Of a stretch of DNA of 64,000 nucleotides, positions 10,545-62,295 are shown in pieces. The notes beneath the pieces are model-generated. The model was not told the DNA's origin, ran no database searches, and worked only from the letters and a program-made list of their open reading frames with translations. Position numbers and translations under genes: made by a program. This DNA comes from Candidatus Parcubacteria bacterium (GTDB taxonomy: Bacteria; Patescibacteriota; Minisyncoccia; Phycocordibacterales; Zambryskibacteraceae): contig JAIFWJ010000001.1 of NCBI GenBank assembly GCA_019661865.1, forward strand, positions 43,290 to 107,289. Direction: 5' to 3'. Within the stretch, counting starts at the first letter, position 1; the number at the start of each line of letters is the position of its first letter.

Positions 10545-12245
10545 ATGCGGAAGTTGACCCTATTCCTAACTGCCTTAGGTCTCATAGTGAGCTGTAAAAA
10601 CAGCATCACTATTGATGACAAGGCGGTTGCGGGAGGAGGTGGAGGTGGGGGCGGAGGAACAGGACCGTGTTCTCTGAACTCCACAGTCACAGTCTCTCCA
10701 AAGTCGAACACACTCGTTGTGGGTTCGACCATGCAGGGCACGGCTACGTGGAACTGTGATGGAAAGGTCGAGTGGTACTCAACAGACGGATCGCGAGTAG
10801 ATGTGATTCATTTCGACACAACTTATGTGAACTCTCAGTTCCCATGGGGTGTCGGAACATTCAAGGCCGGCTTTATCAAGGCCTTGGCACCAGGACAAGC
10901 AGATGTCTGTGCGAAGCTGGTACTCTTCCCGAGTGTCCACGACTGCATGCACATCACAGTTACTGGCACTTCTACGACAGTCACAGTCTCAAGTGTGAAT
11001 GTTACTCCGCAAGGAGCGACAATCTCACTCTCGCTATCAAGCGGGACATGCTCGGCGACTCAGCTGTTCTCTGGACAAGTTCTAGGTTCGGACGGTCTTC
11101 CGTACTCGAACCAGGGCTTAACCTGGACCACTTCCGGAGGAGGGATCTCCTCCTCCGGTTTGTTTACAGCTTCGGCTCCAGGTACTTACACAGTTACGGG
11201 AGCATCCGTCGCAGATCCAAATGTGAAGGGCACTGCACAGATCACTGTGTCGGGCTCGTGTCAGCAGACCGGTCCAACGATTAACCCTGTTGGTCCTATC
11301 ACACTTGGTTCCGGTACAGGATGTACGAACAACACTGGAAGTGCATCGATCACGAACGGTGTAGCAGTAACGTGGACGAATTCCAATCCGTCCGTCGTCA
11401 CCGTCACCAGTTCGACTTCGACCACGGTGAACTTCGTATCCGTCTCTGGCACGTCTGGCTCTACCACTATCACAGGTACGGCAGCAAATGGATTGTCAGT
11501 GTCACTCCTGGTGAATGTCTCGAACGCGTCTTGTAACACTGGCGTCATAGCCTTTGGCACTCCGCGTCCAGCAGACACGACCATCATGGCGAACACTCGT
11601 TACCACTTGTATGTACCCTACACGGTGCCTGCAGGTGTGCGTAATGATGTGTTAGTGCGGACAAGCAACTGTCTGGCATATGTCGGTGCTCCGGTTATCA
11701 CCTCGACTGGTACGAACACGTATCAGATTGATCTGACTGTCCAGGGTATCGCCACGTGCCAAGGTGGAGTCATTATTCTCAAGTCTGCAGCAGATACCAC
11801 CATTTCTGTCACAGCGCATGCGAATGTGGTCTCCGCACCAGGACCGACGATCGTCTGTTCTCCGGCATCTGCAAGTGGAGTAGTAGGGACGGGTGGCAGA
11901 GTAATCTGCACCATCTCAGGCTCCACTGACACACGAGTATGGTACTACTCGACGGATCCCTCGCGTGTATCGGTGGTTCAGAAGGATACGACCTTCGCCG
12001 CCGCTACGAACCCGTGGACTGCGGGCTCCCACTTCGGTGGAGAGTATCGCTACATCTGGACAGGTAGTGCAGATGAGTGTGGGTACTCGCCGTCGAACCC
12101 TTCAATCATCGCATGCATTACGCATACGGTGACGGCGGCTTCCGGTAATCTCATAGCCTCGAGCACATTCGAGATTAGAGATCATCCGGTAACGGTTGAA
12201 CTCAACCGCTTGTACACGGCCGTGAGATCTAGGTCTCTGAAATAG
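10545..12245 (+). CDS. Surface lipoprotein with a Gly9 linker and repeated bacterial Ig-like (Big_2-type) domains
   Basis: Signal peptide with lipobox (LIVSC), a GGGGGGGGG tract, then Ser/Thr-rich beta-type repeats (…TVTVSP…, …VTVTGTS…). Confidence 0.65.
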   Translation: MRKLTLFLTALGLIVSCKNSITIDDKAVAGGGGGGGGGTGPCSLNSTVTVSPKSNTLVVGSTMQGTATWNCDGKVEWYSTDGSRVDVIHFDTTYVNSQFPWGVGTFKAGFIKALAPGQADVCAKLVLFPSVHDCMHITVTGTSTTVTVSSVNVTPQGATISLSLSSGTCSATQLFSGQVLGSDGLPYSNQGLTWTTSGGGISSSGLFTASAPGTYTVTGASVADPNVKGTAQITVSGSCQQTGPTINPVGPITLGSGTGCTNNTGSASITNGVAVTWTNSNPSVVTVTSSTSTTVNFVSVSGTSGSTTITGTAANGLSVSLLVNVSNASCNTGVIAFGTPRPADTTIMANTRYHLYVPYTVPAGVRNDVLVRTSNCLAYVGAPVITSTGTNTYQIDLTVQGIATCQGGVIILKSAADTTISVTAHANVVSAPGPTIVCSPASASGVVGTGGRVICTISGSTDTRVWYYSTDPSRVSVVQKDTTFAAATNPWTAGSHFGGEYRYIWTGSADECGYSPSNPSIIACITHTVTAASGNLIASSTFEIRDHPVTVELNRLYTAVRSRSLK

Positions 12246-12271
12246 TTTCTGTAAATAGTTATTGGGTATAT

Positions 12272-12303
12272 GGCCTGTCCTCCTTCGGAGGCGGGCTTTT
12301 TGT
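12272..12303 (+). terminator. Intrinsic terminator
   Basis: gcctgtcctcc-ttcg-ggaggcgggc followed by TTTTT. Confidence 0.5.
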
Positions 12304-12315
12304 TATACTCATGCA

Positions 12316-13362
12316 ATGAAGAAAAAGGAGGAGAGTGGGGTCTTGTACCGCAAGTATAGACCACAAGGATGGAAGGATGTAGTGGGTCAAGACCATATTG
12401 TCTCGGTTTTAGAGAATCAAATAAAGCTTGGGAATCTTGCCCATGCGTATCTCTTTTCCGGGTCGCGAGGTACAGGTAAGACCTCTGTGGCGAGAATATT
12501 CGCTAGGGAAGTAGGAACAACCCCAGAAGATCTTTATGAGCTTGATGCGGCATCGAACAGAGGCATAGATGATGTGCGCGAGATCCGTGAAGCCGTAAAC
12601 ACGTTGCCGTTTGTCTCAAAGTACAAGGTTTATATATTCGACGAAGTACACATGCTGACGCGTGATGCTTGGAATGCATTTTTAAAAACTCTTGAGGAGC
12701 CGCCGAAGCATGTCATATTTATCTTAGCTACTACGGAGCTTGAGAAAGTTCCAGAGACTGTGATCTCAAGGTGCCAGACATTCGTATTTAGAAAACCCAA
12801 TCAGAAAATCCTCCGCGAGTTTGGAGAAGGAGTAGCTAAGAAAGAAGGGGTGAAGCTCCTGCCCGAGGCGGCAGAGCTCATAGCACTTCTCGGCGACGGA
12901 TCCTTCCGCGACTCTCACGGCATACTGGAGAAGATTCTTTCATCCACTAATGAGAAGGAAATTACTCGTGAGGAAGTAGAGAATGTTACAGGCGCACCTC
13001 GGGCCGAACTTGTGAGAAATGTTTTAGAAGCCATAGTGAAAAATAATTTGGAAAAAGGTCTTAATGCTGTGGCTCTAGCTCGAGAGGGAAATGTGGACAT
13101 GAAAGTTTTCTCCAAGATGATACTTGAGAGAATGCGCTTCCTATTTCTCCTCAGACTTAAGGCAGGCCTCGAGAATCACATCCTGGCTGAGACTTCTGAA
13201 GATGATTTCGAATTTCTAAAGAAACTTGCAGGAGAGGCCAATGGAAGTTTAACTTCAGAAACCTTGGTGCGTTTTATAGAAGCGTTTGAAAATTCTGGTC
13301 GATCTACACTTCCAGAACTCTCACTCGAGTTGGCTCTAACCGACTCGATAAAGACTGTTTGA
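12316..13362 (+). CDS. dnaX: DNA polymerase III subunit gamma/tau (short form)
   Basis: YRPQ...VVGQ...GSRGTGKTS Walker A, DEVHML Walker B and the SRC sensor; the start is taken at MKKKEESG. Confidence 0.9.
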   Translation: MKKKEESGVLYRKYRPQGWKDVVGQDHIVSVLENQIKLGNLAHAYLFSGSRGTGKTSVARIFAREVGTTPEDLYELDAASNRGIDDVREIREAVNTLPFVSKYKVYIFDEVHMLTRDAWNAFLKTLEEPPKHVIFILATTELEKVPETVISRCQTFVFRKPNQKILREFGEGVAKKEGVKLLPEAAELIALLGDGSFRDSHGILEKILSSTNEKEITREEVENVTGAPRAELVRNVLEAIVKNNLEKGLNAVALAREGNVDMKVFSKMILERMRFLFLLRLKAGLENHILAETSEDDFEFLKKLAGEANGSLTSETLVRFIEAFENSGRSTLPELSLELALTDSIKTV

Positions 13363-15530: not shown

Positions 15531-15830
15531 TTACGAGGCGATGGGTTTACCCACTTCTTCACAGTAGAACTCCCAAGCTTCCTCAAGGAGGATGATGTCT
15601 TGGAAGGTGGGTCTATGCTCCTTTATGCCGGAGGAGTGTCCGTGATATTTCTTGAACTCTCTCACTACTTTAGTCATGGGGTTGGGGGTCTCGAGCCTTC
15701 TTAGGGACGAGTCGTTCTCCCAGAATCTCCTTACAGCTTCTCGATCAGTGACTTCGACATGGGCGTAAGTCTCCGCCATTTTTAAAATCATGCGGATGAA
15801 TCTCGATCTCAACGGACGGTCATTAGTCAT
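15531..15830 (-). CDS. Hypothetical protein
   Basis: 99-aa ORF with no recognised motif. Confidence 0.35.
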   Translation of the reverse strand: MTNDRPLRSRFIRMILKMAETYAHVEVTDREAVRRFWENDSSLRRLETPNPMTKVVREFKKYHGHSSGIKEHRPTFQDIILLEEAWEFYCEEVGKPIAS

Positions 15831-18757: not shown

Positions 18758-19282
18758 ATGGCAACAACAATAGTAGGCGTTTTCGACAACCGAGTATCTG
18801 CCGACAGCGCGATAAATGAACTTCGTTCTATAGGGATTCCTGATGCAGAAATTTCTTACATGTACGCTGCACCCGAGGGAGATATAAAAGCTACTCACTC
18901 CACCGGTGAGCGTATGGGTACTCGCGCTGCAAGCGGTGCAGGTACGGGAGCAATCTTGGGTGCCATCGCTGGCTTCGTCGTGGCGAACGGCATCTTACCA
19001 GGACTCGGCACACTCTTCGTGGCCGGACCACTCGCTGCAGCACTTGGACTGACCGGAGTGGCGGCTACCACAGCGGCTGGAGCTCTGACCGGAGCAGCAG
19101 CTGGAGGAATCATTGGAGCATTAAGTGGTCTGGGAGTAAGTGAGTCAGATGCGCGCATGTATGAAGAGCGAGTTAGACGTGGAGGCATACTCTTAGTGGT
19201 GAACTCTGTGGCTGCTAACGCCGCCCGCGAGATTATGAAGAAGTTCGGAGCAGAAGAAATCAGAGAATACAGCGCTGCCTAA
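18758..19282 (+). CDS. General stress protein, YflT-domain with a Gly/Ala-rich membrane-like segment
   Basis: N-terminal VGVFDNRVSADSAINELRSIGIPDAEI (YflT-like) and C-terminal ...MYEERVRRGGILLVV. Confidence 0.6.
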   Translation: MATTIVGVFDNRVSADSAINELRSIGIPDAEISYMYAAPEGDIKATHSTGERMGTRAASGAGTGAILGAIAGFVVANGILPGLGTLFVAGPLAAALGLTGVAATTAAGALTGAAAGGIIGALSGLGVSESDARMYEERVRRGGILLVVNSVAANAAREIMKKFGAEEIREYSAA

Positions 19283-43428: not shown

Positions 43429-43500
43429 TTGACCCTACGGGGAATCGAACCCCGCTTTGAAGCTTGAGAAGCTTCCGTCCTAGCCGATAGACGATAGGGC
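43429..43500 (-). tRNA. tRNA-Glu (anticodon CTC)
   Basis: Manual cloverleaf: acceptor GGCCCTA/TAGGGTC, D-arm GTCT..GGAC, anticodon stem GAAGC/GCTTC with loop TTCTCAA, T-arm CGGGG-TTCGATT-CCCCG. Confidence 0.75.
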
Positions 43501-43566
43501 CGTAGTGAGAAAGCATAGCAAATTGGCCGTTTTTATGCTATAGTTTGGGCGGACTTCTTTGGAGGA

Positions 43567-43923
43567 ATGGACATGGATAGACGTAAACGTCTGTGGTTTG
43601 TCGAGCCTTTAGACGAGGATACTAGCAAGGCCATCGCTCGAGTCGTTGCTGAAGAGCTTGATGAGAAGGCTGCACCTCGACGCGTCAAGGGTAGACCAAA
43701 CCCGGTTCCGACCTGGAGGTGCACAGAAATCCAGGCTCGATACTTCGTACGCAGTCGCGTGAGCGAGCACCTCAAGTTCTACCTCTATACTTGCTTGGAG
43801 GGCGACCGTCTCCAAAAGGTTTCTCTGAATCCCGAAAAGAATCAGAGTATCCTCGAGGTTAGGAAGATGGTACAGAACCAGCTTAAGCGTCCGCTTAAGT
43901 ACCCCCCGCAGCTAGTTCGCTAG
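43567..43923 (+). CDS. Hypothetical protein (GC-rich, strong GGAGG RBS)
   Basis: 118 aa; local GC is clearly above the window background. Confidence 0.4.
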   Translation: MDMDRRKRLWFVEPLDEDTSKAIARVVAEELDEKAAPRRVKGRPNPVPTWRCTEIQARYFVRSRVSEHLKFYLYTCLEGDRLQKVSLNPEKNQSILEVRKMVQNQLKRPLKYPPQLVR

Positions 43924-43950
43924 TTGCGGTTTTTCTTTTATAATTAGCAC

Positions 43951-44202
43951 ATGACGTTTAAAGAGAAAGTTTATAAAGTAGTAGAAACCATACCCAAGGG
44001 CTCAGTTCTGACATATAAGGAGGTGGCGAGAAAGATTGGCTCACCACGTGCGTTTAGAGCAGTGGGTAATGTACTAAATAAAAATGTAGATCCCAATGTA
44101 CCTTGCCACAGGGTTATAAGAAGTGATGGGAAGATTGGTGGGTACAGAGATGGACACGACTTTAAGGTTGTACGCTTGAGGGCAGAGGGATATGCGTGCT
44201 AA
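43951..44202 (+). CDS. Stand-alone methylated-DNA-protein-cysteine methyltransferase (MGMT/Ogt) DNA-binding/active-site domain
   Basis: VPCHRVIRSDGKIGGY carries the PCHR active-site Cys motif; 83 aa. Confidence 0.7.
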   Translation: MTFKEKVYKVVETIPKGSVLTYKEVARKIGSPRAFRAVGNVLNKNVDPNVPCHRVIRSDGKIGGYRDGHDFKVVRLRAEGYAC

Positions 44203-44252
44203 CATTCATTAGACCTGACCTTAAACTCTAAGACCCGAAGGGGGTGAGCAAG

Positions 44253-44570
44253 ATGCCTGCGAGGCGATCTGGGCCATCCACCTGGTGGATTGGTCCTAGA
44301 ATTACCGGGGATAATAAGACCCGAGATGAGCTCATGAAGAAACTCGGTGGATTCGATGGGGTCGAAGTACGAGAGAGATGGAAGAGATGTGGCGTCGACC
44401 AAGGACTTCGTAGTCTCTTGCAATGCGACAGGGAGTTTGCTGACCTGATGCTTAGCATGAGAGGTATGAAGGACCGTGTGCTCGCATTCCGATGGTATGA
44501 AGACGGCACACTCGAGGAGTATTGGCCTCATGGTCGGTCGCCGACTTCCAACTCGGAAGCTGCCGACTAA
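44253..44570 (+). CDS. Hypothetical protein (GC-rich)
   Basis: ATG with an AGGGGGTGA SD; 105 aa; terminator downstream. Confidence 0.4.
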   Translation: MPARRSGPSTWWIGPRITGDNKTRDELMKKLGGFDGVEVRERWKRCGVDQGLRSLLQCDREFADLMLSMRGMKDRVLAFRWYEDGTLEEYWPHGRSPTSNSEAAD

Positions 44571-44596
44571 CCGCGCCCCAGGGTGCGGTTTTTGTT
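44570..44596 (+). terminator. Intrinsic terminator
   Basis: ccgcgccc..gggtgcgg followed by TTTTTGTTT. Confidence 0.45.
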
Positions 44597-44615
44597 TATT
44601 TGGTAGAATACTGAC

Positions 44616-45086
44616 ATGGGATTTTCACACGAAAGTTATATAAATGAACTGAACTCTGAGTTTCCTGAAGAAATGTCTGCACATGTGGCAGAAGTGATAG
44701 ACCATCCAACTCCTAATGTGTCAGAGGAATATCTCCTAGAATTGTGTGGTGATGACGAAGAATTGAAGGAACTACTTGATGAAATGTTTGAATATTTCTA
44801 CAGATATACCCAGGATGTCTGTCTACAAGAGAGCGAGATTGCCAAGGGTATTACGAGAGAAAATGTTGATGAGATAAATAGAATGGACGAGATGAGGACC
44901 AGACTACATAACAGCATGATTGATTCAGTAAAAATCTTTGCTCGTAATTTACAGAAAAAGGGTAAGAGCGTGGAGTGGCTTACTAGCATTGACAATAGGG
45001 GTAGAGCAGGGTATGCTAGGCTGGCTCTTTTAACCACCTTCCTTGATATTATCAATCGAAGTCAAATTCCAAATCATGGAAGGTAA
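44616..45086 (+). CDS. Hypothetical protein
   Basis: 156 aa, acidic. Confidence 0.4.
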   Translation: MGFSHESYINELNSEFPEEMSAHVAEVIDHPTPNVSEEYLLELCGDDEELKELLDEMFEYFYRYTQDVCLQESEIAKGITRENVDEINRMDEMRTRLHNSMIDSVKIFARNLQKKGKSVEWLTSIDNRGRAGYARLALLTTFLDIINRSQIPNHGR

Positions 45087-45090
45087 TTCA

Positions 45091-45288
45091 ATGGAAAATA
45101 TCGGTCGCAAGTCTCTGATCCTGCACTTCGCAAGTTTATGTGCGAAGGAGCTCACTGAAGAAGATCCAGTAAAGCAAGAAAAGATAGAGAAGGAAAAGAA
45201 GGTCATAAGTTCTGGATTAGGAATGGATACTGCTGAGATCATTCTTGAGGCCAGTAATCTGATCACTCCGTCTGAAAATTCTGAATAA
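45091..45288 (+). CDS. Small hypothetical protein
   Basis: 65 aa; terminator downstream (45289-45310). Confidence 0.3.
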   Translation: MENIGRKSLILHFASLCAKELTEEDPVKQEKIEKEKKVISSGLGMDTAEIILEASNLITPSENSE

Positions 45289-45330
45289 ACTCGCCTAATG
45301 CGGGTTTTTTGATGTTACAATATTTATGAA

Positions 45331-48081
45331 ATGGCACTTGAAGAGCATTTTAATAGTCCTCAGGAAGAGTTAGCTCATCTAAGAGAGAAAGTTCTAGAAG
45401 CAGAACGCAAGCTTCTACGTCACGGAGTAGAAAAACCTCGTGACTCGGTCATCCGTGAATCCATAAAAACTTTTGAAGAAGCTCATCTCGGGAATATCAG
45501 AGAAGAGAAAAAAAGAAGTGCAGAGGAACAAGCAGCTCATCTCATGCGTAAGCATGTCGAGACGCAGCTCGAGGAGATGATGCAGATTACGGCAGATAAG
45601 GGAGTGCTCTCAGCACTTGCCACAGCTGAGTCCATGAAGGATTGGAAGCTTGAGGACGACTTCCACGACTTCTTAGTGGGCGTAGTAAGTAAGGGCTTGC
45701 CTCCAAGAGGGGTCAAGGAGAAAGGTCCCATATTCAAAGCACTTCATATGAGTCTCTACGAGGTAATGCTCCCGAAGAAAGAAGGCGAGCGCGACCGACC
45801 TCTAACTGAGCTCATAAAGAGCATGGAGCAAGTTTACTCAGGGCTCATGTCCATAGAGTCTCACGAGAGTAGTGAGGCAGGGCACATGGCTTTCGAGATA
45901 GCGAACCCTGAAGGCGAGGAAGATACGCACGTCTTCGTCTCTGTGCCGACAGACAAGAGAGACCTTTTCGAGAGACAAGTACTCTCGATATTTCCAGAAG
46001 TGAAGTTAATTCCACGTGAACGTGACTACAATATGTTTAATGAGATGGGTGTGACACTTGGTTCATCTGCTTCACTTACTCAGTATGGTTACTCACTTAA
46101 GACTAGTGATGCATTTAGTGATGATCCATTAAATGTCATACTCAACGGATTTTCTAAGATCCCTCTCAAAGGTGCCGGAGCAGCGCTCCAAATTATTTTC
46201 AAACCGGCCGGAGAGAAGTACATGAAGCATCTTTCTGAAGCTCTTAAAGATATAAGCAAGGGAGTGAAGCCTAAAGAAGCGTTGAAAATTAGTAGTGTCG
46301 CAGGTGAGTTTGGAGAGACTCTGGGCCAAGTACTTTTCGGTGTGAAGGAGAAGAAGCCTGAAGTGGTGGATCCGCTGGTAGTCCAGTCCATACAGAGGAA
46401 GATGGAAAGCCCAATCGTGGAAACAAATATCCGTTTAGCAGTCTCTTGTGGAGGCCAGGCAGAAGCGAGGCATGTGCTAGAGAACCTACAATCTTCTTTT
46501 AATCAGTTCGAAGAACCTGGAAAGAACAAATTTGAATGGAATGTGGTGAAGGTCCCGCATGAGAGCGACTTCTACAGAGCATTTACATTTAGACTCTTTA
46601 GAGATTCTGAGGTGGTACCACTTAACCTAAGAGAACTTTCGACCATCCTCCACCTACGTGGTGAAGCGCTCAACACATCATCTCTCAAACGTTCTACCAC
46701 CAAGTCTGCAGCACCACAGACCATCGCTCGGTCTGGCCTTTCGATAGGAGTTAATAATTTCCAAGGCAGAGAGACGAAGATATTCCTCTCGGACGAGGAC
46801 AGGCTCAGACACTTCTACGTTATCGGCCAGACGGGTACCGGTAAGTCTACACTTTTGAAGAACATGATCATAGAAGATATCCAAAGAGGAGAGGGAGTCT
46901 GCATGATAGATCCGCATGGTCAGGATCTCATGGATGTAATGTCGAACATCCCCAATGATAGATTCGACGACGTCATATACTTCGACCCTGCATCTACGGA
47001 CAAACCCATGGGACTGAATATGCTCGAGTATGATCACAACAAACCCGAGCAGAAGACCTTCGTAGTTAATGAACTCTTTTCCATTTTCCAGAAGCTCTAC
47101 GGCAAAGTGCCCGAGTCTATGGGTCCAATGTTCGAGCAATACTTCCGTAATGCCACGCAGCTTGTCATAGAAGATCCAGATACTGGTTCTACACTTCTCG
47201 ATGTCTCTAGAGTCCTTTCGAATAAAGAATACAGAAACCTTAAACTCTCTCGTTGTCAAAATCCTATAATCGTGCAGTTCTGGCGCGAGGTAGCAGAGAA
47301 GGCAGGCGGGGAAGCAGCACTTGCAAACATTGTGCCCTACATTACTTCCAAGTTTGATGTCTTCCTTTCAAACGATATTATGCGTCCGATCATTGCTCAA
47401 GAACACTCCACATTTAACTTCCGAGAAATCATGGATTCAAAGAAGATTTTACTCGTGAACTTGTCTAAGGGTAGACTCGGGGAAGTGAATGCGAACTTAC
47501 TTGGACTTATCATCGTGGGGAAGATCTTACTTGCCGCACTCTCGCGTGCATATTCATTTGGTTCTGAGATGCCGCCCTTTTATCTTTATATCGATGAATT
47601 CCAGAATATTACAACTAACTCCATCTCCACTATTCTTTCCGAAGCTCGGAAGTACAAGTTGGCACTGACTGTGGCGCATCAATTCATCGCACAACTTGAT
47701 CCAGATATTAAAAATGCCGTTTTCGGTAATGTGGGATCAATATGTGCATTTAGAGTTGGAGCAGATGATGCCAAGTATCTTGAGACTCAGTTCGCACCGG
47801 CTTTCACGGCTGATGATCTTATGAATATAGATAACAGGCACGCCCACATGAAGATACTAGTAAATGGCAGACCTACGTCATCCTTCGATATGGAAACTCT
47901 TCCTCCACCACAAGGTGTGAGAGACTCTGTGACAACTATTATGAATTTGTCCAAAGGTAAGTATGGACGTGACCGTAAGGATGTGGAGCATGAGATCCTA
48001 GAAAAATACCAGCCTGCGCTGGCAGGTAAAAAGAAGGAGCCGACAATGATGTCGGCCCCAGGGTTGGGCTCTCGCTCCTAG
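45331..48081 (+). CDS. Large P-loop ATPase: uncharacterised N-terminal ~470 aa plus a C-terminal HerA/FtsK/VirD4-superfamily (DUF87/AAA_10-like) ATPase domain
   Basis: RHFYVIGQTGTGKST Walker A preceded by His, CMIDPHGQD (DPxGE-like), FYLYIDEFQN Walker B, EARKYKLALTVAHQFIAQL (ATQ..sQL-like); no N-terminal TM segments. Confidence 0.7.
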   Translation: MALEEHFNSPQEELAHLREKVLEAERKLLRHGVEKPRDSVIRESIKTFEEAHLGNIREEKKRSAEEQAAHLMRKHVETQLEEMMQITADKGVLSALATAESMKDWKLEDDFHDFLVGVVSKGLPPRGVKEKGPIFKALHMSLYEVMLPKKEGERDRPLTELIKSMEQVYSGLMSIESHESSEAGHMAFEIANPEGEEDTHVFVSVPTDKRDLFERQVLSIFPEVKLIPRERDYNMFNEMGVTLGSSASLTQYGYSLKTSDAFSDDPLNVILNGFSKIPLKGAGAALQIIFKPAGEKYMKHLSEALKDISKGVKPKEALKISSVAGEFGETLGQVLFGVKEKKPEVVDPLVVQSIQRKMESPIVETNIRLAVSCGGQAEARHVLENLQSSFNQFEEPGKNKFEWNVVKVPHESDFYRAFTFRLFRDSEVVPLNLRELSTILHLRGEALNTSSLKRSTTKSAAPQTIARSGLSIGVNNFQGRETKIFLSDEDRLRHFYVIGQTGTGKSTLLKNMIIEDIQRGEGVCMIDPHGQDLMDVMSNIPNDRFDDVIYFDPASTDKPMGLNMLEYDHNKPEQKTFVVNELFSIFQKLYGKVPESMGPMFEQYFRNATQLVIEDPDTGSTLLDVSRVLSNKEYRNLKLSRCQNPIIVQFWREVAEKAGGEAALANIVPYITSKFDVFLSNDIMRPIIAQEHSTFNFREIMDSKKILLVNLSKGRLGEVNANLLGLIIVGKILLAALSRAYSFGSEMPPFYLYIDEFQNITTNSISTILSEARKYKLALTVAHQFIAQLDPDIKNAVFGNVGSICAFRVGADDAKYLETQFAPAFTADDLMNIDNRHAHMKILVNGRPTSSFDMETLPPPQGVRDSVTTIMNLSKGKYGRDRKDVEHEILEKYQPALAGKKKEPTMMSAPGLGSRS

Positions 48082-48410
48082 CGATCGCCGTTCGGAAGCT
48101 GCAGGTCACGGTAGCAGATCTCGGGCTTGGGCTCGTGGGGGTGCCATTTGCCTTTCCCGATGAGCTCATGAGTTGGCGCTCGTCCGAGCACATTGCGGAT
48201 ATTGCGCTCGACCAGATAGGTGAGAGCCTGTTCCTTTACCGCCTTCCTTCGCTTGCGGTCAATGATCCGCCATTCGGCGATGACAGCGTCGAGAACCTTG
48301 GTCGGTTCTTGACCGGGTTTTTTCTCCAAACGATTGTTGACTTGACTGGCAATCTCCTTCGCCAGAGCAGTGTCATCGAACGTTTGTCCGAGTTCGAGTT
48401 GCATACTCAC
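48078..48410 (-). CDS. Hypothetical protein, conspicuously GC-rich, convergent with the ATPase gene
   Basis: 110 aa; has its own near-consensus promoter. Confidence 0.45.
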   Translation of the reverse strand: MSMQLELGQTFDDTALAKEIASQVNNRLEKKPGQEPTKVLDAVIAEWRIIDRKRRKAVKEQALTYLVERNIRNVLGRAPTHELIGKGKWHPHEPKPEICYRDLQLPNGDR

Positions 48411-48449
48411 CTCTGTGAACCATGTTGAACTTGTACTTAGCCTATGCTA

Positions 48450-48478
48450 ATACTATCACAACACAGGCACTTTGTCAA
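48450..48478 (-). promoter_or_regulatory. Near-consensus sigma70 promoter on the minus strand (TTGACA-17-TAGTAT)
   Basis: Minus-strand ttgaca (48478-48473) and tagtat (48455-48450). Confidence 0.5.
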
Positions 48479-48494
48479 GTCAACTAGGAAACAA

Positions 48495-50560: not shown

Positions 50561-50589
50561 ACACCCTCCTCCGGAAGGTGTTATTTTTT
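50561..50589 (+). terminator. Intrinsic terminator (possibly bidirectional)
   Basis: acaccctcc-tccg-gaaggtgtt followed by ATTTTTTT. Confidence 0.55.
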
Positions 50590-50958
50590 AGAGTTGTACC
50601 TGCCATTTCCTGCAAGCGAACGTAGGGCAACTAGTCTAGCACATGAGATTTGAAGGGCTGCCTCGAACCGTGTGAGAAAAGTATCCTCGCGCGTATCCTT
50701 GGTGTTACTTATGTACCAGTGGCCTTTTTTGTCCTTGTCCTCCTTATCCAGAGCTTGAATGTTGGAGAAGTACTCTGCTTGCGACCTGACATGGTCATTC
50801 TTGATCGAGTCAGCGATGTCATTAAAGGAGATCATCAGAGATATGTTACCCTGCTCCTTTAACTTCTTGCGAAGCATCGTAATTTCCTCGAAGCATTCGC
50901 GCCAGCCATTCTCGACCTCCAGTTCTCGTTCCTCGCGGGAACGACTTCTATCAAACAT
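50581..50958 (-). CDS. Hypothetical protein
   Basis: ORF downstream of recR; the start is taken at an internal Met. Confidence 0.3.
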   Translation of the reverse strand: MFDRSRSREERELEVENGWRECFEEITMLRKKLKEQGNISLMISFNDIADSIKNDHVRSQAEYFSNIQALDKEDKDKKGHWYISNTKDTREDTFLTRFEAALQISCARLVALRSLAGNGRYNSKK

Positions 50959-57918: not shown

Positions 57919-58302
57919 TCAGACTCCTAGTGCTAAGCCTTCATCCTCTTCTGGCATCGATTCAGAGATAATCGCCAAACTATTCTGGACCAAGGCTTCA
58001 CCGACCCACTCGGTCAGGCGGGCGATCTCAGCATTGTTGTGGAGAATGGTGACTCCTCGAATGATCGGAGCACAGAATCTCTTAATGATCAGGGTGGTTT
58101 CCGAGTCGTCCTCTACCAGCTCGAGAATTCCATGAAAAGAAGTGGATTGAAAGCGACTGTCCACAGAACCTTCTTGAAGGTAAATAAACAGTCGTTGGAG
58201 CCTCTCTCGTGAACACCTCTGGAGTTCCCTAGTAATATAGGGTGCAGCCTCCTCTGCTGTGACGGCAGCCATTGAGGCTGTGATCGGACCCGGATCCGTC
58301 AT
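57919..58302 (-). CDS. Hypothetical protein (GC elevated)
   Basis: 127-aa ORF with no motif. Confidence 0.3.
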   Translation of the reverse strand: MTDPGPITASMAAVTAEEAAPYITRELQRCSRERLQRLFIYLQEGSVDSRFQSTSFHGILELVEDDSETTLIIKRFCAPIIRGVTILHNNAEIARLTEWVGEALVQNSLAIISESMPEEDEGLALGV

Positions 58303-60217: not shown

Positions 60218-61417
60218 TCAAACCACTTCCCCCATAAAGGGTAAATTTAAACGGCGGGTTGGATGCAAATGTCTTCTCCCTACTGAAGTTAGGCTAGACG
60301 CTAGAGATACAGTTCCTGTTCCAAACTTCCTATCTATTTTATCTACTACATCAAATATTTTTTTCAATTTTAAATTTTTCACAACTTCTCCGAATAAATC
60401 TGTCTGGTTTAAGCTCGTCGGCCTGAGCTCACTTAAAGTCACTCCAGTAGCCCTGTATTCAACTCCAGACTTATATAAAGTATCGAAGGTCGACTGAACG
60501 AGGCTCAAAATGGTCATAGGATCGTTCGTCGGCACATCTAGTGGTATCTCACATCGTTTATAACGGAACTCTTGAGTCTTTAAGAAATAATAAATTCTTT
60601 TCGTCTCTAACTTGTCTCTACGTGCATGTATACAAGCACCCTCTACATTGTGAGAGAGTTCAGAGAGAATAATTTTCTTCTCTGAGGTGTGTGGGAAGGT
60701 ACGCGTCTTCTGAATACTTTTCTGTATATCATCTGACTCATGAACTTTATAGACTGGAGTGCCTTTGAGCTCGTACCAAGTCTCTAGCATGGGACTTGAG
60801 AGGTTCTCCCGTATCCATCTCTCTGGTCTTTCTATGAAGTCGAGAGCTGTCACAACTCCAAGTGAGTGTAGATGATGACTAGTCTGGGGTCCAATGCCCC
60901 ACACCTTCCCTACTGCGAGATTTTTAAGAAAGTCATGAATTGATGAGTTGTCAAGAATAGTGAAACCGTCGGGTTTATTCCACTTCGACGCCACCTTGGC
61001 CAGGACCTTCGTGGGAGCGACACCCACACTAAATGTCATACCAAGTTCACGACCTAGAGTAGTCTTTATAAGTCTAGCAGTATGTTCCCTGTCCTTGTCT
61101 TCAAGGATGGCGAAGCACTCGTCTATAGAATACTCCTCTACCCTCTCGGTGAAGCGTCGTACAATGTCGTACATTCTAGTAGCGAACATTCCGTACGTAT
61201 GATAATTGGAATTCACAATGACCGCGGTCGGGAAAAGTTTCTTTATTTCAAATATCGGCATGCCTCTGTGTATGCCGAGTGCCTTGGCCTCAGGACTCAT
61301 GGCAGTGGCTATACCGCGCTCTTGGCCAGTAACTACAGGCTTACCCTTGAGCTTCGGATTAAGTGATATCTCACATGAGGCGAAGAACCCATCTCCATCT
61401 ATATGCAGTATGGCCAT
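60218..61417 (-). CDS. dinB: DNA polymerase IV (Y-family)
   Basis: ILHIDGDGFFASCE...SIDECF motif. Confidence 0.9.
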   Translation of the reverse strand: MAILHIDGDGFFASCEISLNPKLKGKPVVTGQERGIATAMSPEAKALGIHRGMPIFEIKKLFPTAVIVNSNYHTYGMFATRMYDIVRRFTERVEEYSIDECFAILEDKDREHTARLIKTTLGRELGMTFSVGVAPTKVLAKVASKWNKPDGFTILDNSSIHDFLKNLAVGKVWGIGPQTSHHLHSLGVVTALDFIERPERWIRENLSSPMLETWYELKGTPVYKVHESDDIQKSIQKTRTFPHTSEKKIILSELSHNVEGACIHARRDKLETKRIYYFLKTQEFRYKRCEIPLDVPTNDPMTILSLVQSTFDTLYKSGVEYRATGVTLSELRPTSLNQTDLFGEVVKNLKLKKIFDVVDKIDRKFGTGTVSLASSLTSVGRRHLHPTRRLNLPFMGEVV

Positions 61418-61418
61418 A

Positions 61419-61976
61419 TTAGTACTTTCTTAGGACTGCTTTTACTACTGCTGGGATGGTGAGAGTTTCGGAGGGGTAGATGTCCTTGTACTTATCATTG
61501 GCAGCTTCTAGGTAGTGACGCTTACCTCGAGTACGATAGTATTTGAGTGTGTACTCACCATCTACCTCTGCCACCACTATGTCACCGGATTTAGGTGTTT
61601 TACCTCGCTCTACGAGTACTAGGTCACCGGGCATGATACCGGCATCCTTCATGGAGTCTCCCTTCACCTTAAGTAAGTACGTAGCCTCTTTGTTATCCAC
61701 CAGGTATTCATCCAGGCTCATAGTGTCTACAAGTTCCTCTGAGGCTGAGGTCGGGAAGCCAGCCTCAACTACCCCAAGTACCTTCACCTCTCCCAGAGTC
61801 TTCGGCACGAGCTTGCCCCTTGTGTCTTTCCTTATCGTTCCGTCCTTCACGAGTTTATTTACGAAGTAACTTACAGCCGCCTTGGACTTATAGCCCAAGA
61901 GTTTCTCCATCTCAGAGAATGTGGGCATGCGCTTCTTAGACTTATAGAAACTCCAAAGCTTACTTCTTCTATCCAT
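61419..61976 (-). CDS. lexA: LexA repressor (S24 peptidase)
   Basis: N-terminal wHTH and a C-terminal GDSM...K catalytic dyad; dinB lies immediately downstream. Confidence 0.9.
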   Translation of the reverse strand: MDRRSKLWSFYKSKKRMPTFSEMEKLLGYKSKAAVSYFVNKLVKDGTIRKDTRGKLVPKTLGEVKVLGVVEAGFPTSASEELVDTMSLDEYLVDNKEATYLLKVKGDSMKDAGIMPGDLVLVERGKTPKSGDIVVAEVDGEYTLKYYRTRGKRHYLEAANDKYKDIYPSETLTIPAVVKAVLRKY

Positions 61977-62055: not shown

Positions 62056-62295
62056 TCAACAGACTTGTATAACCCGCACTTCGTTTGGAGAAATGATTCC
62101 GTAGGCTCCGTCATGTGTATAAAACTTAAACAAGGGAGTGTTCTGATCAGTGCCTGGAACCTTCTCACTCACAAACACGATGTTCTGTAACAGGGCGCAG
62201 ACGCATAGCTCGTTCTGAAGTTCATGCAACCGGCTACCGCATTTTAAAACCTGCACCCACTTGCCGGAGAGATCCTGATGTTCACGGTGGAGCAT
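62056..62295 (-). CDS. Doubtful small ORF upstream of lexA
   Basis: 79 aa, Cys-rich, no motif; may be non-coding. Confidence 0.15.
   Translation of the reverse strand: MLHREHQDLSGKWVQVLKCGSRLHELQNELCVCALLQNIVFVSEKVPGTDQNTPLFKFYTHDGAYGIISPNEVRVIQVC

Follow-up and report, generated by a model that had tools for sequence, protein, structure and literature searches.

A gene block beside tRNA-Glu in a Parcubacteria genome is probably a mosaic of core and lineage-specific genes rather than an acquired island

The DNA analysed here is a 64-kb stretch of a metagenome-assembled genome from Parcubacteria (Patescibacteria); the analysis was confined to these 64 kb, hereafter the window, which hold 80 open reading frames (ORFs). 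Between the tRNA-Glu gene and the YqeY gene lies a block of seven ORFs, namely orfA, an MGMT-family gene, orfB, orfC, orfD, a large gene for a VirD4/TraD-like P-loop ATPase and, on the opposite strand, orfE. A sequence-only reading had proposed that this block is a single horizontally acquired module, pointing to its GC-rich small ORFs, their strong ribosome-binding sites and the nearby tRNA. Our results suggest instead that it is a mosaic chromosomal neighbourhood, in which core genes and lineage-specific small genes alternate, and we regard this as the probable explanation. The genes around the block are housekeeping genes, encoding TopA, RelA/SpoT, two penicillin-binding proteins, several aminoacyl-tRNA synthetases, MurF, YqeY, RmuC, L21, RecR and DnaB. 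In public collections the block proteins are singletons, found on one 188.5-kb NCBI contig assigned to "Candidatus Parcubacteria bacterium" (KW790_00565 to KW790_00590).

The composition of the block is heterogeneous. The mean GC content of the window is 0.450, with a standard deviation of 0.038 in 330-nt windows, and orfA (0.527, measured on 43567-43923), orfB (0.538, measured on 44244-44570) and orfE (0.556, measured on 48078-48410) lie at the 96th, 98th and 99th percentiles of equal-size windows. The claim that these three small ORFs are GC-richer than their surroundings therefore holds (52.7-55.6% vs 45.0% for the window). The entire block, with 0.462, reaches only the 84th percentile; MGMT and the ATPase gene have GC contents of 0.433 and 0.457, and orfC and orfD are AT-rich (0.39, 2nd-5th percentile). 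At third codon positions the GC content (GC3) is 0.59 in orfA, 0.55 in orfB and 0.65 in orfE, the last being the highest value of all 80 ORFs, against 0.44 +/- 0.05 in long ORFs. We also counted GC-ending synonymous codons conditional on amino-acid content, with 25 long genes as the codon reference. The expectation for the three ORFs together is 135.9 such codons, and they use 179 (z=5.0, p=3e-7). Codon usage in MGMT and the ATPase gene is host-typical (z=0.66), and orfC and orfD are shifted towards AT (z=-2.2). The anomaly expected of the whole block is thus found in orfA, orfB and orfE, and neither in its main genes nor in its overall GC content.

Relatives were collected with MurF as the query and one genome per species, which gave 18 loci (L001 and onwards). 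In the closest species-level genomes MurF is 45-59% identical, i.e. these are family-level relatives. The order MurF, tRNA-Glu, MGMT, ATPase, YqeY (minus strand), RmuC and L21 recurs in six loci (L002, L003, L005, L007, L008 and L017), except that the ATPase gene is missing in L003 and L008 and MGMT in L002, so that MGMT is syntenic in L003, L005, L007, L008 and L017. The identities in these loci are 61-77% for MGMT, 53-57% for the ATPase and 29-59% for MurF. The slots between the conserved genes have other occupants in the relatives: a pilin-like protein, membrane proteins, ClpP-like proteases, a DUF2225 protein and a large serine recombinase. At this family level, the idea of a variably present block stands for orfB, orfD and orfE, which are lineage-specific and lie in slots that vary, but not for MGMT, the ATPase and the orfA family, which are syntenic and form a conserved core.

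The first of the GC-rich ORFs carries much of the argument. orfA encodes a basic protein (pI 10.0), and local phmmer and hidden Markov model (HMM) searches recovered homologues upstream of MGMT in L005 (E=2.4e-13), L008 (9e-5) and L007 (leave-one-out HMM); genes in L003 and L002 are, from their sequences, probable members too. The members share the motif R.WFVEP.D..T ... W.C.E, and neither a Pfam scan nor a PDB profile search returned anything for the family. As judged from these alignments, orfA is a conserved gene of a small uncharacterised family that is positionally linked to MGMT. Shine-Dalgarno (SD) sites precede the members of the window, of L005 and of L008. In all six genomes the GC3 of the family genes lies above the local baseline of long ORFs, by +0.09 to +0.33 over baselines that range from 0.35 to 0.65, and in the same genomes the GC3 of MGMT and of the ATPase gene follows the local baseline. 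A foreign-donor signature would not track each host baseline with a constant offset, and the GC3 excess of orfA is therefore a property of the gene itself.

Translation signals also set the GC-rich ORFs apart. With a core of at least 5 nt as the criterion, an SD site precedes just 13 of the window's 80 ORFs, including orfA, orfB and orfE (sequences in Table 1), in line with the earlier observation of strong sites that are rare elsewhere. A TAnnnT hexamer stands 3-12 nt upstream of the ATG in 36 of the 80 ORFs, while the share among ATG triplets in general is 16% (p=1e-9). Therefore, leaderless-type starts are common in the window, and SD-led genes are the minority. GC3 is 0.527 in SD-led ORFs and 0.439 in the others (Mann-Whitney p=1e-4), and seven of the eight ORFs with the highest GC3 are SD-led, four of them outside the block (small ORFs at 15531, 50581 and 62056, and a 566-aa ORF at 10545). 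The three small ones and a further SD-led orphan at 57919, when pooled, show the same excess of GC-ending codons (z=4.5); none of these four has a curated Pfam match, and none is paralogous to another. The slot between L21 and RecR, where the orphan at 50581 is located, is occupied by unrelated genes in L002 and L003. The GC-rich small ORFs of the block probably belong to a class of small genes, spread over the genome, that have a leader, depend on an SD site and retain their excess of GC3 in the course of time.

From these observations a coherent scenario can be proposed. A backbone formed by tRNA-Glu, an orfA-family gene, MGMT and the ATPase gene, flanked by MurF and YqeY/RmuC, would be vertically inherited in the family, and small self-contained genes would turn over fast in slots that lie between operons or where the ATPase and YqeY genes converge, with orfB, orfD and orfE as the slot occupants of the current lineage. 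Most genes would start right after a -10 box, and the GC-rich small genes, being leadered or distal cistrons, would need an SD site. The GC3 excess would then belong to the gene class and be maintained in the long term, rather than being the fading signature of a foreign donor. Its likely causes would be selection acting on the mRNA or codons of leadered transcripts, or GC-biased gene conversion in accessory slots that are prone to recombination; indeed, gene GC content correlates positively with evidence of recombination across bacterial clades (PMC4450053). Nevertheless, several points weigh against this scenario. GC3 alone is a poor discriminator, because the core gene for seryl-tRNA synthetase (SerRS) likewise reaches 0.59. 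The persistence of the GC3 excess is established only for orfA, since orfB and orfE have no homologues. The available relatives are of family level, a distance at which strain-level gain or loss of orfB, orfD and orfE is undatable and recent turnover is possible. Finally, among the small ORFs found downstream of the ATPase gene in other genomes (described below), the elevated GC3 could partly be a selection artefact, as long ORFs arise more easily in GC-rich DNA.

The hallmarks of a mobile element were absent from the window. No recombinase or integrase was found in the seven block ORFs with Pfam, NCBIfam and PHROGs; the window contains no bounding repeats that could be attachment (att) sites, and the 3' half of the tRNA does not recur in it even when up to 3 mismatches are allowed; and the block sits 5' of the minus-strand tRNA-Glu. 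Searches of IMG/VR, of INPHARED phages and of PLSDB plasmids returned no relatives, the orfA alignment being too divergent to scan with. Together with the host-typical MGMT and ATPase genes and the synteny, this speaks against a single acquired module, and the suggestion of a remnant mobile region fares no better, as neither a recombinase, an att repeat nor a partial tRNA copy is present. A subtler version would be a gene-by-gene accretion, each GC-rich ORF having been imported separately from a GC-richer mobile pool such as unsampled Parcubacteria phages or plasmids. orfA and orfE are each organised as a unit of atypical composition with a predicted promoter, an SD site and a terminator of its own, which would fit this idea, as would the singleton status of orfB and orfE in very large protein collections, the differing slots of the relatives and the serine recombinase that lies at this tRNA-Glu in one of them (L007). 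However, orfA is syntenic, a GC3 equal to the host baseline plus a constant positive offset is not expected from a single foreign donor, and the phage, plasmid and viral-contig collections gave no match, just as the window gave no recombinase or repeats. As an account of all three ORFs we consider accretion unlikely; gene-by-gene import of orfB and orfE is possible.

The surroundings of the tRNA in the relatives deserve a separate description. In L007, a large serine recombinase of 514 aa (Resolvase, Recombinase and Zn-ribbon domains; 11467-13067) lies beside the orfA-family gene and reaches into the 3' end of the tRNA-Glu gene, which is itself atypical, with 76 nt; no att repeat of at least 16 nt was found downstream of the recombinase. 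The variable slots, together with this recombinase abutting the same tRNA-Glu, indicate that the region is plastic. ClpP-like proteases (PF00574) are found in the MGMT-ATPase slot of L007 (14020-14598, minus strand; GC 0.56 vs 0.49 for the locus) and just downstream of MGMT in L008 (13277-13900, minus strand; 0.47 vs 0.42). tRNA-Glu(CUC) follows MurF in every relative (L001-L017), but its orientation varies: 9 loci have it on the plus strand and 6, like the window, on the minus strand, which suggests repeated local inversions.

Whether the GC-rich ORFs are genes at all must also be considered, above all for orfB and to a lesser degree for orfE. Stop codons are scarce in GC-rich DNA, three overlapping ORFs of about 100 aa span both strands in the orfB region, and orfB is absent from the public annotation and has no homologue, so that it could be suspected of having arisen by chance in non-coding DNA of high GC content, or of being a structured RNA. 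Nevertheless, when the six frames are scored by codon log-likelihood, the annotated one comes first for all three ORFs, and each has a correctly spaced SD site and a terminator right after its stop codon. orfE, in addition, yields a confident three-helix prediction from its single sequence. Structured RNA was rejected: the only match to Rfam 15 is the tRNA, both at gathering scores and at E<=1, and the folding z-scores of the GC-rich segments are just -2.3, -1.45 and -1.3. orfA, orfB and orfE are best read as protein-coding, and we consider it improbable that orfB or orfE is no gene.

Read from its sequence, the block consists of six transcription units, namely tRNA-Glu (minus strand), orfA, MGMT-orfB, orfC-orfD, the ATPase gene and orfE (minus strand), with promoters, terminators and transcript overlaps being consensus predictions throughout (Table 1). 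The scan found 13 terminator-like sites, where shuffled sequences give 5.3 +/- 2.4, which bears out the proposal of intrinsic terminators in the block. The predicted leader of orfA is about 25 nt long. No terminator was found between MGMT and orfB, and the two are probably co-transcribed, with orfB as the distal cistron; that the three GC-rich ORFs are mostly independent transcription units is supported. orfC has a leaderless-type start, with TGgTAGAAT 6 nt before its ATG. The near-consensus promoter proposed for orfE was found again, accompanied by an upstream TG, and its convergence with the ATPase gene and their 4-nt overlap are confirmed. Some boundaries had to be corrected, since the public record starts orfA and orfE further inside than had been read and the tRNA-Glu gene is shifted by one nucleotide, from 43429-43500 to the position given in Table 1. 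Finally, orfB, orfD and orfE have no detectable homologue, but orfC is no orphan, as it matches DUF3232 (PF11554; 29.4 bits vs a cut-off of 27.4), under which name it also appears in the public record; its homologue in L005 sits elsewhere. A possible paralogy between orfB and orfA, suggested by a pairwise match to an L003 ORF (L003_13386; 2e-4 in a single comparison) and by an N-terminal motif resemblance, was ruled out, as the family HMM ranks orfB 1307th and hhalign gives a probability of 1%.

Table 1. Features of the block and SD-led orphan ORFs elsewhere in the window (positions are those of the window; promoters and terminators are predicted).
Feature	Position	Strand	Details
tRNA-Glu(CUC)	43430-43501	-	ARAGORN; Rfam RF00005 at 54.6 bits
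orfA control region	43536-43566	+	Extended -10 TGcTATAGT 43536-43544; SD GGAGGA 43561-43566; inferred from sequence
orfA	43573-43923	+	116 aa; NCBI record KW790_00565
orfA intrinsic terminator	43906-43939	+	10-pair stem (43906-43929) then TTTTTCTTTT; overlaps orfA stop codon
MGMT-family gene	43939-44202, CDS 43951-44202	+	TATAAT 43939-43944, 6 nt before ATG; leaderless-type start
orfB	44238-44570, CDS 44253-44570	+	105 aa; SD AAGGGGGTGA at 44238-44247
Terminator 3' of orfB	44569-44598	+	9-pair stem (44569-44590) then TTTGTTTATT
orfC + orfD pair	44601-45288	+	orfC 44616-45086; orfD 45091-45288, 65 aa
Terminator 3' of orfD	45287-45315	+	8-pair stem (45287-45307) then TTTGATGTTA
VirD4/TraD-like P-loop ATPase	45313-48081, CDS 45331-48081	+	916 aa; TGtTACAAT upstream
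orfE terminator	48026-48059 (48059-48036)	-	10-pair stem, 7 GC pairs, then TTCTTTTTAC; within last ATPase codons
orfE	48078-48404	-	108 aa; NCBI record KW790_00590
First plus-strand terminator 3' of ATPase stop	48288-48323	+	Stems 48288-48313 and 48297-48317, then T run; inside orfE
orfE control region	48407-48478	-	TTGACA-17-TAGTAT and upstream TG 48478-48450; leader ~40 nt; SD GAGGTGA 48413-48407
SD-led small orphan ORF	15531-15830	-	Adjoins tRNA-Gln
SD-led small orphan ORF	50581-50958	-	Between L21 and RecR
SD-led small orphan ORF	57919-58302	-	
SD-led small orphan ORF	62056-62295	-	Single sub-threshold Pfam match

The two conserved protein families of the block can be assigned with some precision. 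The stand-alone MGMT active-site domain proposed earlier is real: the 83-aa protein matches PF01035 (E=4.6e-29) and TIGR00589 (E=2.5e-23, 81.9 bits) and contains the active-site cysteine motif PCHRV (...NVPCHRVIRSDGKIGGY...). The ATPase matches PF02534 (32.6 bits, cut-off 20.1), PF01935 (29.6 bits) and PF10412 (21.7 bits, cut-off 20.5), in each case above the cut-off, as well as phrog_5156 (E=1.7e-75), and has a Walker A motif, GQTGTGKS, at residues 499-506. Its best sequence match in the PDB is TrwB, over the P-loop only. A Kyte-Doolittle scan for an N-terminal membrane anchor showed no hydrophobic segment in residues 1-700, the single peak (719-737) falling inside the ATPase domain, and neither VirB4 nor a relaxase was found among the window ORFs scanned (all those of at least 500 aa and many others, such as TopA, RelA, the penicillin-binding proteins, DnaB and the aminoacyl-tRNA synthetases). 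At least 577 full-length metagenomic relatives, 44-62% identical, were recovered, usually with methionine aminopeptidase (Map) encoded upstream and nucleoside diphosphate kinase (Ndk) downstream. In loci L019-L098, from across Patescibacteria, the ATPase gene most often has Map upstream and Ndk downstream, an ORF of 600-880 aa taking the downstream place in a smaller subset. A survey of Patescibacteria reported 5,713 VirD4-like homologues, just 148 of them near virB4, and raised exaptation as possible (PMC12102498). The block ATPase is an orphan soluble VirD4-like protein and a core Patescibacteria gene, already known from the literature as widespread.

orfE is more difficult to place. A word-indexed search of 5.8e9 proteins and an exhaustive phmmer search of 1.84e9 representatives returned only orfE itself, besides one weak match to a repeat protein (P0003; 492 aa, E=8.5e-6, 32-35% identity over about 55-63 aa). 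This secreted-looking protein has three repeats of about 150 aa, each of which aligns to helices 2-3 of orfE (residues 30-92), and the match carries no information on the function of orfE. A single-sequence AlphaFold2 (AF2) model predicts a three-helix bundle in residues 11-74 (pLDDT ~80 in 11-70) with a disordered tail; no informative structural neighbour was found for the model. In seven loci (L002, L017, L024, L032, L033, L034 and L039) a small, mostly GC3-elevated ORF stands convergently right after the ATPase gene. We attempted to unite these ORFs in one family: the MAFFT alignment looked plausible and the resulting HMM ranked orfE first (E=0.046, among more than 5,300 ORFs). Nevertheless, leave-one-out tests failed for 11 of the 13 putative members, and homology is not established.

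These ORFs raise the question of whether the small proteins are partners of the ATPase. On this reading, SD-led and GC3-rich small proteins, namely the orfA family upstream of MGMT and a convergent three-helix protein after the ATPase gene, would hold their positions in the family while diverging fast, and the exapted ATPase might have in them its cognate substrates, adaptors or regulators. orfE could, in addition, act by convergent antisense transcription: the terminators of orfE and of the ATPase gene each lie within the other gene, so that the two transcripts would overlap by about 280 nt, and antisense interference is possible. The recurrent convergent ORF in the seven loci, and the first rank of orfE in the HMM built from these analogues, would support such a link. 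The evidence is entirely positional, however, and besides the leave-one-out failures just mentioned, the ATPase gene is followed at most loci by ndk or some other gene of the same orientation, and no sequence or structural link connects the small proteins to known components of type IV secretion systems (T4SS). We consider a partnership quite improbable; if it were true, high GC3 combined with an SD site would be the sign of genes translated under a regime of their own, in a genome that is otherwise mostly leaderless.

The sequence-only reading had also offered a toxin-antitoxin (TA) or regulatory role for the small ORFs, and an anti-phage defence role can be added to it. Small basic orphan proteins beside a P-loop ATPase are suggestive of such systems, and in PADLOC-DB v2 the ATPase weakly matches mad8 and HerA, at P-loop level only. 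However, Pfam, NCBIfam, PHROGs and PADLOC gave no TA or defence match for any of the small ORFs, orfA, orfB, orfD and orfE matching no profile at all at the threshold of E<=0.01 (orfE has one chance-level PADLOC match, E=0.015), no two-gene co-transcribed pair of the kind found in type II TA systems is present, with orfA and orfE monocistronic and orfB following MGMT, and the ATPase gene is a core gene located mostly between map and ndk. A TA or defence function is thus highly unlikely.

Other features of the window are of interest in their own right. A YflT-domain protein (18758-19282, plus strand) has a GC content of 0.541, with the excess in first and second codon positions, from its Gly/Ala-rich tail, and not in GC3; the GC peaks of the window therefore do not all share one cause. 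The 566-aa SD-led ORF (10545-12245, plus strand; GC 0.536) starts with a lipoprotein-like segment, contains nine glycines in a row and has no Pfam match. At 60218-61976 (minus strand), a DinB-type polymerase (IMS domain) is preceded by a LexA-like S24 peptidase, and with MGMT, RmuC, RecR and DnaB this pair makes the region rich in DNA-repair genes.

Overall, the block would be an ordinary feature of a Patescibacteria genome that offers two minor leads. The first is the small uncharacterised orfA family with its positional link to MGMT, whose unusual composition is retained in hosts that differ widely in their GC content. The second is the class of leadered, GC3-rich orphans, set against a background in which close to half of the gene starts appear leaderless; this class could aid the study of translation initiation and of gene birth and turnover in reduced symbiont genomes. 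The case also calls for caution when hunting for islands in Patescibacteria, as GC peaks and strong SD sites beside a tRNA gene are not, in this block, the sign of an acquired module.

Compared with known systems, the block resembles tRNA-linked genomic islands and integrative elements in its adjacency to a tRNA gene, its local heterogeneity in composition and the recombinase found at the same tRNA-Glu in L007. It differs from them in its position on the 5' side of the tRNA, in having neither an integrase nor an att repeat, and in its main genes, which are conserved and host-like. Phage morons, described by Hendrix and colleagues, are self-contained promoter-gene-terminator units of atypical composition that stand between conserved genes. 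orfA and orfE are similar to morons as single genes with their own predicted promoter and terminator and an atypical GC content, placed between conserved genes; the block, however, is chromosomal and not part of a phage, orfA is syntenic, and the GC3 offset tracks the host baseline, unlike that of a recent import. Type II TA loci differ more clearly, since the block has no adjacent co-transcribed small pair: orfA and orfE have their own terminators, and orfB follows MGMT.

As to GC-biased gene conversion (PMC4450053), the likeness lies in a gene-specific GC3 excess that amino-acid content does not explain, in a region of gene turnover; it is a candidate cause only. The MGMT protein shares with Ogt/Ada-type alkyltransferases (MGMT family, PF01035) the C-terminal DNA-binding and active-site domain, and it matches only the C-terminal part of the Ogt/Ada models, their N-terminal domain being missing. 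The ATPase differs from VirD4-type coupling proteins by a soluble N-terminal region of about 480 aa, the lack of a membrane anchor and the absence of relaxase or T4SS genes nearby. Its closest counterparts are the orphan homologues of type IV coupling proteins (PMC12102498), with which it has in common the matched T4SS-DNA_transf, TrwB_AAD_bind and DUF87/HerA models, a setting with no virB4 alongside and a phylum-wide distribution.

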